From a bacterium (GTDB lineage: Bacteria > UBA8248), in assembly GCA_963692865.2 (NCBI GenBank), contig OY843592.1:544001-608000 (forward strand): a stretch of DNA of 64,000 nt, read 5' to 3'. The position numbers were made by a program, and so were the translations under genes. The notes under the pieces are model-generated. The model was not told where the DNA came from and did not search any database. It saw only the letters and a list, made by a program, of their open reading frames with translations. This document shows, one piece after another, positions 25,685 through 51,047 of the stretch; the first letter of the stretch is position 1, and every line of letters starts with the position of its first letter.

Positions 25685-25930
25685 TTACGAAAAATAGGCC
25701 CGCGACAGAAACCTTTGTTTGATGCTGTCGGGGCCACTGCTGCACTTCTGCACCAGAAAAGTGCCCAGCGTATGCGTTTTCATCGTCGTTTCGATTGCAA
25801 CTCTCCTGGTGTCGTAGTCTCCGATCACATTGCGATTTTTGATTACGATATGCCTGCCGTCATACTTCTCGGCGAGATCGGTCCGGTTTTCCAAATAGTA
25901 TTCAAATTCATCGTTCAATCCATTTTCCAT
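25685..25930 (-). CDS. Small DUF5678-like protein
   Basis: EFEYYLENRTDLAEKYDGRHIVIKNRNVIG..GTFLVQKC; GGAGG RBS and TGnTATAAT upstream. Confidence 0.65.
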   Translation of the reverse strand: MENGLNDEFEYYLENRTDLAEKYDGRHIVIKNRNVIGDYDTRRVAIETTMKTHTLGTFLVQKCSSGPDSIKQRFLSRAYFS

Positions 25931-26235
25931 GGCGCGCCTCCTGAGGAACTCTCGATTTCAGCCGATTGGCCAAAAACACGGAAGAGAGCAAAATTCATTA
26001 TACCATCATCTCGGAATGCCGCCCGCTCCCCCCTCTCGGCGGGCCGCCCGAAAACCGAAAAAATTTGTTGCCGACCATCCAAAAAGCGGCTAACATCGCA
26101 GGATCGAAATGCACGGCCGGTGAAAAAGAAAATGAAGCCGGCGCTTGGAGACGGGTTCACCGTGACCCCGGAGAGCCAACGCGAGCCTTGCTCACGCCCG
26201 CATCCGCTCCCGGGCGCGCATCGTCCGAAGAAGGA

Positions 26236-26528
26236 GGGGGTTACTCATTATTCCCGGAAGCGGATCTGAGGACCCAACTCGAACCCGAAACGGTACTGGC
26301 TACTCCACGAGGATGAGTAGCTAATGAGTAACCCCCAAATTCTTCATCCACTCGCGCGCGCCTCCGCGCCTCGGACGCGCCCTGCAAATCCCCCATACCC
26401 GCCGCCGGGACGCCGAAACGGGGAGGGGGCTACTCATTACTTCCCGTTTCATGTCGATGGCCGGTCGACAGGAAACGAGACGCGACGCATCCCTTAAGGT
26501 AGAGGTAAGCGGTTAATGAGTAGCCCCC
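26236..26528 (-). ncRNA. Two tandem structured hairpin cassettes (candidate ncRNA; strand inferred from G-U pairing)
   Basis: GGGGGYTACTCATTA-N71/N74-TAATGAGTARCCCCC with a compensatory base-pair change. Confidence 0.45.
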
Positions 26529-26640
26529 GATGCTTCATCCGCTCCAGCGGGTTCCGGGCGCGCTCTCGAAACCGGCCCCGGCGCCATTCCCTGGGCAGGC
26601 GCCGTTTCTTCGCCTTCGGCGAGGTATCCGGTTTCCCCAT

Positions 26641-26669
26641 TTGACCAAATAGTCATTTTCTCCTATAAT
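26641..26669 (+). promoter_or_regulatory. Near-consensus sigma70 promoter with overlapping palindrome
   Basis: TTGACC-N17-TATAAT; TGAC-N6-GTCA overlaps the -35 box. Confidence 0.6.
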
Positions 26670-26816
26670 GCATCCTTGAAAACGGTTTCACAAAAAAAGC
26701 CGCTCCCATAATTTTAGATTGACGCACACATGGCAAAGCCGTTCGACCCATACAATCGTCCCCAATCCACTCTCGGATTGATTCACTCGATCCGGCGGAC
26801 GAAGTCCGGGCTGGTT

Positions 26817-26931
26817 GGCATACAATCCACGTTTTGGAAGAAAAGTGGGTTCCCGCCTATTCCAACTCTCAGAAGAGTCGTTTTGTATTCAGCGGGCAGC
26901 CCGAGAATCTACCATACGCGGATTGTATGCC
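26817..26931 (-). ncRNA. Candidate rod-shaped small RNA
   Basis: 12-bp closing stem GGCATACAATCC/GGATTGTATGCC plus internal stems; promoter TTGACA-N17-CACTAT at 26967-26939 puts +1 at the stem base. Confidence 0.5.
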
Positions 26932-27157
26932 GGGTAAAATAGTGGAGGATACAACCTGACTTGTCAAGAAAGAAATTGAGACTTTCGCGCAACCTTTTCC
27001 GTTTTTCGAGAAAAAACCGGGTATCGCCCGGGGAGGCGCGGAGCCGACAAAAGCCCTCGGCCCGACTCACCGAATGTCCCGCATCGTTTCCGTATTCGAG
27101 CGGCCTGCGTCCGGCCGCCCATTGCGCGCAGGGCCCGGGTTCCTCAAAAGCGCTCCC

Positions 27158-50970: not shown

Positions 50971-51047
<77 letters not shown>

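Follow-up and report, generated by a model that had tools for sequence, protein, structure and literature searches.

What kind of element is formed by two inverted repeats that stand in tandem in a bacterial genome, with almost identical stems and seemingly unrelated inserts? The pair is located in a stretch of 64,000 nucleotides (nt), hereafter the window, from contig OY843592.1 of assembly GCA_963692865.2 (GTDB lineage Bacteria; UBA8248; positions 544,001 to 608,000 of the forward strand). The original prediction, made from the window alone, had described a constant scaffold with variable cargo and suggested either an array of guide-like or processed RNAs or a new structured non-coding RNA or single-stranded DNA element. 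Our analysis shows that the two units are tandem genes of a ~100-nt RNA with a three-way junction, paralogues that we call A and B. The fold is new to the catalogues and is found in one genus, with one additional weak match in a sister family. Judging from complementarity, A and B are most likely base-pairing regulatory RNAs, and we hold with moderate confidence the reading as a whole, namely that these are lineage-restricted structured RNA genes which include base-pairing regulation of lipoprotein mRNAs. The two units are as follows.

26236..26336, minus strand: unit A, an RNA gene of 101 nt with a closing stem P1 of 15 base pairs (bp), a hairpin P2 and a long hairpin P3.
26425..26528, minus strand: unit B, a paralogue of 104 nt, upstream of A on the RNA strand.

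Both units occupy the positions at which they had been predicted and have perfect 15-bp stems. The arms of unit A (26236-26250/26322-26336) are complementary over 15 nt, in a stem extendable to 24 nt at 88%, and those of unit B (26425-26439/26514-26528) are 100% complementary over 15 nt. The sole stem difference between A and B, T-A versus C-G, affects both sides and is compensatory, as had been claimed. A search for the arms in the window gave four matches, all exact; with up to three mismatches allowed, shuffled sequences gave 1.21 matches on average and 3 of 100 shuffles reached four. Folding of each unit was compared with dinucleotide shuffles, giving z of -4.5 to -6.7 (-4.49 for unit A), and none of 200 shuffles equalled it. 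A third hairpin with the same stem is present elsewhere in the same genome, and its end pair is again compensated (A-T to G-C).

When this and related genomes were searched for the stem-gap-stem pattern, further copies were obtained in 17 of 42 genomes of the family, all of them in the genus of the window (16 of 22 other genomes, plus its own), versus none in the 19 genomes of eight other genera of the family. The inserts of these matches are of three types: A (the first unit of the window), B (the second) and C (elsewhere in the genome). Type B is always found ~180 nt from A, upstream on the RNA strand. The RNAalifold consensus of 32 distinct copies consists of P1 (15 bp), a short P2 and a long P3, with 28 pairs, nine of which show double-sided changes. 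The motif CGTTTC...CGGGAA, correctly noted before as common to both inserts, is the base of the third helix. A covariance model, R1, was built from the 32-copy alignment and thus partly from units A and B of the window; R2 is a broader model. The search with R1 uncovered many further copies with a different P1, which constitute type D and which, although outside the alignment of R1, score 47-84 bits against it. P1 of type D (GGGGGUUGCCCGUUG / CAACGGGCAGCCCCU) differs from the A/B/C stem in three pairs, each of them compensated, and at two positions contains G-U wobbles that are pairable on the sense strand only. The three-helix architecture is common to types A, B, C and D, and within types A, B and C, 14 bp of P1 stay the same from one species to the next. 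In an alignment of 56 copies (54 distinct), 96.6% of pair cells are standard, versus 36-56% after sliding the partners by 1-3 columns; double-sided changes affect 13 of the 28 pairs, and the covariation score is 0.401, versus at most 0.095 in the slid alignments. These 56 copies were aligned by fitting to the model, which favours the structure, yet the margin is large all the same.

The same models identify the strand. Sense copies score 58-114 bits and antisense copies 33-42; with R1, the sense and antisense scores are 97.1 and 33.7 bits for unit A and 58.3 and 33.2 bits for unit B (with R2, A scores 90.3 and B 57.0). Since the sense scores are far above the antisense ones, the RNA strand is the minus strand of the window, on which better pairing had indeed been anticipated. 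Of the possibilities raised originally, it is the new structured RNA that is borne out, by strong covariation, strand asymmetry and cross-species conservation, and by the lack of a match in Rfam 15. At the gathering threshold, the only Rfam match in the whole window was a tRNA-Arg at 50974-51047; at E up to 10, positions 25900-26900 gave two chance matches (E of 2.5 and 4.7), far below the cut-offs, and three type D loci gave none. Word searches of the full-text literature returned no description of this RNA, which may go by another name.

R1 and R2 were applied to 42 genomes of the family, 44 of the order and all 51 available genomes of the phylum. Matches were confined to the same 17 of 23 genomes of one Nitrospinota genus, with 3 to ~16 copies in each. 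The only match outside the genus, among the 51 phylum genomes, is a weak one (41 bits), found in G045, a genome from the same class and a different family; it retains the covarying P1, a GUAC junction, P3 and the apex UUGAGUCCUC. This copy (L096 2501-2603) is located 285 nt past a lipoprotein gene ending in GAFGARKMEE, whose 5' region carries GGGAGAGACUCAA ~55 nt before the likely start; the latter is complementary to the apex with one bulge. Unit A is the best-conserved and universal member of the family, present once, at a syntenic site, in each of the 17 RNA-bearing genomes. A second tandem unit accompanies it in 11 of the 17, one of which (G020) has three units, while six have A alone. Mean pairwise identity of unit A across the 17 genomes is 87.6%, compared to 58-63% in the adjoining 60 columns on each side and 38% in the more distant spacer. 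For unit B the identity is 86.2% without the window genome and 80.6% with it; the B of the window has diverged, with P2 replaced and P1 carrying the compensated C-G pair. Each insert type is conserved across species at the orthologous position, and the inserts are thus orthologous genes of several paralogue types rather than variable cargo.

The relatives also reveal what the family is associated with, and we are confident that it is tied to lipoprotein genes. In three genomes, 19 of 23 type C and D copies are positioned 10-206 nt past the stop codon of a long open reading frame (ORF) ending in ..GAFGAxKQ or a close variant. Among the other four, two have this ending in a direct reading of the flank, one gave no clear reading, and one, a C-like copy, is without an upstream ORF and has TTGACA-17-TATGAG ~45 nt upstream. 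The linked ORFs start with a lipoprotein signal, ..LAGCGGGGG (lipobox N-terminus). When the C-terminal domains were scanned singly against Pfam, TbpB_B_D was matched by 6 of 18 (best E 5.9e-5) and FHBP_C by 3 of 18, all weakly; the nearest Atlas clusters are also TbpB_B_D, which is a lead only, and full-length lipoproteins obtained no family name from Pfam, NCBIfam or PDB sequences. The search for conserved neighbours of the C and D copies thus yielded the lipoprotein gene upstream and no conserved gene downstream, where neighbours vary. The protein family is present in 16 of 17 RNA-bearing genomes versus one of six RNA-less genomes of the genus, counts that come from kin and do not amount to a statistical test.

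Units A and B of the window are full-length sense matches to this family of lipoprotein 3'-end RNAs, by a model built partly from them. The minus strand of the window has no TbpB-like lipoprotein gene upstream of A and B, and these are therefore stand-alone copies, differing in position from the 19 C/D copies and from the tandems of two relatives, where the A/B-type pair begins 7 nt past the stop codon of a small family gene. In one of these relatives (G023, L022) the small lipoprotein gene before the tandem is split into two ORFs and may be on its way to the gene-less state of the window. Elsewhere in the genome of the window (C1:1831233-1831364), a type D copy, D1, is preceded by only the last ~44 lipoprotein codons, which are 84-92% identical to the tail of another paralogue, so that gene tail and RNA appear to move or convert as one block. 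Two further type D copies of this genome (C1:1537666-1537771 and C8:1988-2093) have identical RNA and near-identical flanks and follow different lipoprotein genes; they may stem from a recent duplication or conversion of the gene tail, or the small contig may hold a duplicate created by assembly.

Which parts of the RNA could then contact a target? Among the unpaired parts, conservation is highest in the P2 loop and the P3 apex, which in unit A correspond to the following positions.

26306..26312, minus strand: P2 loop of unit A, CCUCGUG, complementary to CACGAGG inside the leader box AUCACGAGG; predicted duplex -12.4 kcal/mol.
26268..26277, minus strand: P3 apex of unit A, UUGGGUCCUC, complementary to GAGGACUCAA with one G-U; predicted duplex -17.1 kcal/mol.

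The P2 loop, CCUCGUG, is nearly invariant in types A, B and D, and many D copies have a longer form, CCUCGUGAU. Types C and D share UUUGAGUCCUC as their P3 apex, and in the 17 type A copies the apex is invariant. Of 12 distinct lipoprotein 5' regions, eight have the complement of the apex, GAGGACUCA, 3-7 nt upstream of the ATG, and three variants of this complement (GAGGAUUCA, GAGGGCUCA and GAGGACUCG) all retain pairing via G-U. The 11-mer AGGAGGACTCA occurs 103 times in the 17 RNA-bearing genomes versus 21 times for the reversed control; in the six genomes of the genus that lack the RNA, the counts are five and two. The complete genome G016 has AGGAGGACTCA 2.0-3.3 kb upstream on the same strand for nine of 11 non-A copies and one-letter variants of it for the other two. 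In one of the latter units the partners have both changed, the apex to CGAGUCCUC and the box to GAGGACUCG; beyond this unit, covariation of the loops is limited by an apex that is invariant in almost all copies.

The complementarity extends to both loops at once. In ten genomes, the lipoprotein gene to which type C belongs possesses a leader made up of 3-5 hairpin units in tandem. Each unit starts with the bipartite box AUCACGAGG-N2-3-GAGGACUCAA, and the last box forms the start site of the gene itself. Together with an eleventh leader, which belongs to another gene, there are 44 boxes, with ATCACGAGG in 23 and GAGGACTCAA in 34. In its first half the box complements the P2 loop of type D exactly and that of A/B over 7 nt; in its second half it complements the apex of C/D exactly and that of A with one G-U. 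Predicted loop-box duplexes range from -12.4 to -17.1 kcal/mol. A second leader has CGACGAUG, the complement of the type C P2 loop, beside the same second half. The bipartite pattern is found in 11 of the 17 RNA-bearing and in none of the six RNA-less genomes of the genus (the genome of the window, with a spacer of 2 nt, is missed by the pattern), and elsewhere in the phylum single matches with one mismatch occur in 5 of 28 genomes. The corresponding leader in the genome of the window (C1:1832300-1832740; L095 200-640) and those of relatives (L097-L105) consist of 3-5 tandem hairpins of ~65 nt, each mimicking a start site; some contain 12-codon ORFs with KPPP and others have no ATG, and the real lipoprotein start is predicted to be inside a hairpin AUCAC...GUGAU. 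As in the loops of the RNA, CUCGUGA and CCUC are found on the 3' strands of these hairpins.

It is very unlikely that adjacent perfect matches of 9-10 nt to both loops arose by chance, and they should reflect either functional pairing or an inverted partial duplication. Pairing is favoured because the two motifs are adjacent in the leader and 37 nt apart in the RNA, in an order that is not the simple antiparallel one, and because both partners are invariant while the proteins diverge to ~30% identity. On balance, the proposal that the loops act by pairing with leader and start-site boxes seems to us to have an even chance of being correct. Within these genomes, most members of the RNA family (types C and D) form the 3' ends of transcription units for a large set of paralogous lipoproteins with a TbpB/fHbp-like C-terminal barrel. 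According to the proposal, pairing with the bipartite box, the second half of which overlaps the Shine-Dalgarno (SD) sequence of many lipoprotein genes, would involve the P2 loop (CCUCGUG[AU]) together with the P3 apex (UU[U]G[A/G]GUCCUC). Binding would then mask the ribosome-binding site or remodel the leader hairpins, tuning translation of the lipoprotein repertoire, with repression and activation as the two conceivable directions. Action in cis as well as in trans is conceivable for the copies at 3' ends, whereas the gene-less A and B, if transcribed as discrete RNAs, could act in trans only. The original suggestion of guide-like RNAs thus survives only in the sense of two loops complementary to leader boxes of lipoprotein mRNAs, and fails in the sense of target-derived inserts. 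In a more far-reaching version, which we regard as doubtful, the copies would form an RNA cross-talk network. Every lipoprotein mRNA would end in a two-loop clamp, with A and B as stand-alone copies; the clamp would recognise the box at lipoprotein starts and in the tandem decoy hairpins of one master leader, and transcribing one paralogue would set the translation of the others.

Several observations weigh against regulation by pairing. Positions 26229-26576 are covered by contigs of relatives (85-95% alike) that come from two metatranscriptome runs in a single study, which places the region in an RNA library and is not a sign of transcription as such, given that contigs of an RNA library may hold DNA and give neither ends nor strand. 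In both RNA-library runs there is no contig over 26000-26228 or 26577-26800, which are covered by a DNA run of the same study; with ends bounded by repeats and a single study as the source, the contigs are no evidence for transcript ends. Upstream of B, the RNA strand of the window shows no convincing sigma-70 promoter, and of two relatives one has a 9-of-12 match in this region and the other none; such candidates as there are are weak and not conserved. The window hairpin at 26198-26178 has no U-run behind it and was not called by a terminator scan. Energies of full-length duplexes between ten units and their own 5' regions were unremarkable (z of -1.18 to +1.22). Among 10,112 start-like windows genome-wide, the best lipoprotein start was 9th by summed energy, and for the P3 apex alone there was no lipoprotein start in the top 15, in scores dominated by the high G+C background. 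The units of gene and RNA are all paralogues, and the counts of co-occurrence are therefore not independent. The complementarity could also stem from one inverted partial duplication: the antisense of a leader unit and type D share AUGAGUU(U)GAGUCCUC. Moreover, boxes on the mRNA and loops on the RNA have the same 5'-to-3' order instead of the simple antiparallel one, the box is missing from some lipoprotein sub-families (4 of 12 5' regions), unit B of the window is without the CCUCGUG loop, and the type C P2 loop is unmatched by its own leader. A specific target of type A through GAGGACCCAA was considered separately and rejected: there are three non-self sites in the genome versus ~8 expected, and the best of them, at the start of a K+ channel gene, is exact in only 4 of 23 genomes, with counts that resemble the control.

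Could the family be explained without pairing? The RNA may be a purely cis-acting structure of mRNA 3' ends that terminates or protects lipoprotein transcripts, or a processing site, with A and B as functionless relics of gene loss. The 19 of 23 C/D copies directly past a stop codon are consistent with this, as are the tandems of two relatives that still stand behind a family gene, split in one of them, and the outward extension of P1 in some copies (GCGAAAA/UUUUCGC in type D, GAAGAA/UUCUUC in A). We nevertheless consider such a role unlikely as the whole explanation. The gene-less A of most genomes is the best-conserved member, well above its flanks in 17 of 17 genomes, a mere protective stem would not need invariant loops, and one copy has a promoter-like site of its own. 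Furthermore, there is no U-run behind P1, and its outward extension is not general, being predicted by the consensus fold for type B only and present in some D copies and in A, so that a general processing stem was rejected. Alternatively, the RNA could be a scaffold or decoy for a protein, as Y RNA is for Ro or 6S RNA for RNA polymerase, with P1 and the loops as protein contacts and the match to the box as a shared protein-binding motif. An invariance of 14 P1 base pairs within types A, B and C exceeds what a helix needs, and CUCGUGA and CCUC on the 3' strands of the leader hairpins resemble the RNA loops. Yet the genome has no TROVE/Ro gene, no protein gene is a conserved neighbour (a DUF5678 gene is present at 8 of 17 loci and the genes downstream of C/D copies vary), and P1 changes between types by compensated pairs, as fits a helix rather than a site read as sequence. 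We thus regard a protein scaffold as improbable.

Explanations at the DNA level fare worse still. A miniature inverted-repeat transposable element (MITE) with P1 as terminal repeats, or a folded recombination site of the attC kind that marks lipoprotein cassettes, would account for perfect 15-bp inverted repeats in 3 to ~16 copies per genome, for the variation from one to three units at the A/B locus and for genes bracketed by complementary motifs, the box 5' and the apex 3'. However, no copy that was read has a target-site duplication, orientation to the upstream gene is fixed (19 of 23), the A/B duplication includes flanks outside the inverted repeat, P2 and P3 covary internally, and the G-U pairs work on one strand only. 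In addition, A is syntenic in 17 genomes, no copy is present in viral contigs, phages or plasmids, and the order GTTAC...GTAAC is opposite to that of attC core sites. A mobile or single-stranded DNA element, as first suggested, is therefore very improbable. Least credible of all is the guide-like array, with its constant stem and variable target-derived inserts. The two inserts do look unrelated within this one window, but the comparison of orthologues already contradicts the idea, because each insert type is conserved across species and both align to one model. Besides, there are only 1-3 units, and searches of phage and plasmid collections and viral contigs, with the region, its inserts or the stem pattern, returned no match.

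How does the RNA compare with known systems? Bacterial Y RNAs (YrlA/YrlB, partners of Ro/Rsr) are ~100 nt long, with a conserved end stem and a variable multi-helix domain, and often occur as tandem paralogues. The present RNA is similar in length, in its long closing stem and in its tandem paralogues, and differs in being linked to lipoprotein genes rather than to rsr/rtc. Membership was rejected since PF05731 (TROVE) had no match over the whole genome of the window, although control genomes responded, and since none of the 50 tRNAs that ARAGORN identified in the genome is at the units or the leader repeats, as a tRNA-like domain or integration site would require; the apex resembles a T-arm sequence by eye only. 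Correia-type elements of Neisseria and integron attC sites are ~100 bp long, bounded by inverted repeats, multi-copy, intergenic and able to fold into hairpins. Unlike these, the present copies have no target duplication, a fixed orientation past one gene family, internal covariation and orthologous conservation. The bases flanking P1 form no direct repeats in any copy seen and in type D are mutually complementary. Insertion in either orientation, as expected of a MITE or Correia element, is at odds with 19 of 23 copies in one orientation and with gain and loss of unit B that include the flank. In attC the core sites are RYYYAAC ... GTTRRRY at the outer ends, in an array next to an integrase. 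Here the outer ends are GTTACTC ... GAGTAAC, in the opposite order and off-consensus, and the copies are dispersed over the chromosome; no search for an integrase was made. An intrinsic terminator was likewise rejected, none being called 3' of either unit, where P1 is followed by UCC.. or, in type D, by GUUUUCGC.

Closer in the manner of action are small RNAs that present loops. OxyS contacts fhlA by two-loop kissing, RsaE/RoxS use C-rich anti-SD loops, and some regulators are cut from mRNA 3' ends. Similar to these, the present RNA has short stretches in loops that are complementary to ribosome-binding regions. It differs in having no visible U-rich terminator or Hfq-type module, in apparent targets that belong to its own host gene family, in boxes that run in parallel order to the loops and in having no Rfam match. 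For the copies at 3' ends, the closest parallel is the gene icaR. Types C and D share its layout, since their apex places an anti-SD sequence at the 3' end and the matching box stands at the start site, while A and B could act in this way in trans only. A motif in the 3' untranslated region of icaR mRNA of Staphylococcus aureus pairs with the SD region, blocks initiation and creates an RNase III substrate (PMC3868564). The likeness is one of action, not homology, as the two share no sequence and the present RNA is known from sequence alone. Unlike icaR, it forms a discrete covarying three-way junction, is attached to 3 to ~16 paralogous genes per genome, has two complementary loops instead of one linear motif and also exists as stand-alone genes (A and B).

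What surrounds the two units in the window is less uniform. The adjoining features are these.

26337..26424, minus strand: spacer between B and A; contains the 5' flank repeat of A, with purine-rich GGAUGAAGAAUUU immediately ahead of the stem.
26529..26576, minus strand: repeated 5' flank of unit B (GCGCGCCCGGAACCCGCUGGAGCGGAUGAAGCAUC), with flank repeats; an RNA-library contig reaches 26576.
26201..26235, minus strand: 3' flank of A, in which UCCUUCUUC pairs with GAAGAA of the 5' flank (inverted repeat).
26178..26198, minus strand: hairpin GGCGUGAGCAAGGCUCGCGUU, ~40 nt downstream of A, identified by alignment with relatives, where it is terminator-like (a U-run follows).

The repetition of the flanks, also part of the original prediction, was recovered as CATCCRCTC..GCGCGC at 26201, 26345 and 26536, the first of these being a partial third copy (26201-26219). 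In most species each unit is preceded by GGUUUCAAGG..GCGYRUUCGGAAC..AGGAGAAGAUGAAG. The duplicated unit at the A/B locus measures ~185 nt and takes in flanks outside the inverted repeat, and gain or loss of unit B carries ~85 nt of flank along. The homologue of the downstream hairpin in a relative (L012, 1822-1842) was called by the terminator scan and has nine pairs followed by GGTTTTTCCA. Further downstream, the DUF5678 gene (25930-25685, minus strand; a weak Pfam match), which is found at 8 of 17 loci only, has its own TATAAT box. On the other side, in the divergent neighbour of the RNA pair, there is a second long inverted repeat, GGCATACAATCCACG ... CGCGGATTGTATGCC (26818-26932), around ~88 nt. 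It overlaps a 70-codon ORF on the plus strand (26730-26942) that has no match in Pfam or NCBIfam, and is kept in at least seven relatives. A C/T change that faces G preserves the pairing on the minus strand of the window only. This repeat could be another structured RNA instead of, or besides, the small ORF. A repeated palindrome, GTAGGTCGGACATATATGTCCGACATA, with conserved flanks is present in several copies (L005 1690-1900, downstream of the type C copy, and the downstream regions of L050 and L049). It looks like a family of the repetitive extragenic palindromic type that is unrelated to the RNA.

If the reading put forward here is correct, an uncatalogued, strongly covarying fold ties together 3' ends, 5' leaders and separate small-RNA genes within one large family of surface lipoproteins. 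The precedent of icaR, a single gene, would thereby be widened to a whole gene family and to trans-acting copies. The rule of two loops versus a bipartite box, for example at a simple AGGAGGACUCA start, is concrete and testable in a heterologous host, even though the bacteria are uncultured, and model R2 can be used by annotators for a feature that is now covered by spurious ORF calls. For the bacteria themselves, the network of cross-talk, if it exists, would mean RNA-based coordination, or mutual exclusion, of the expression of their surface proteins.

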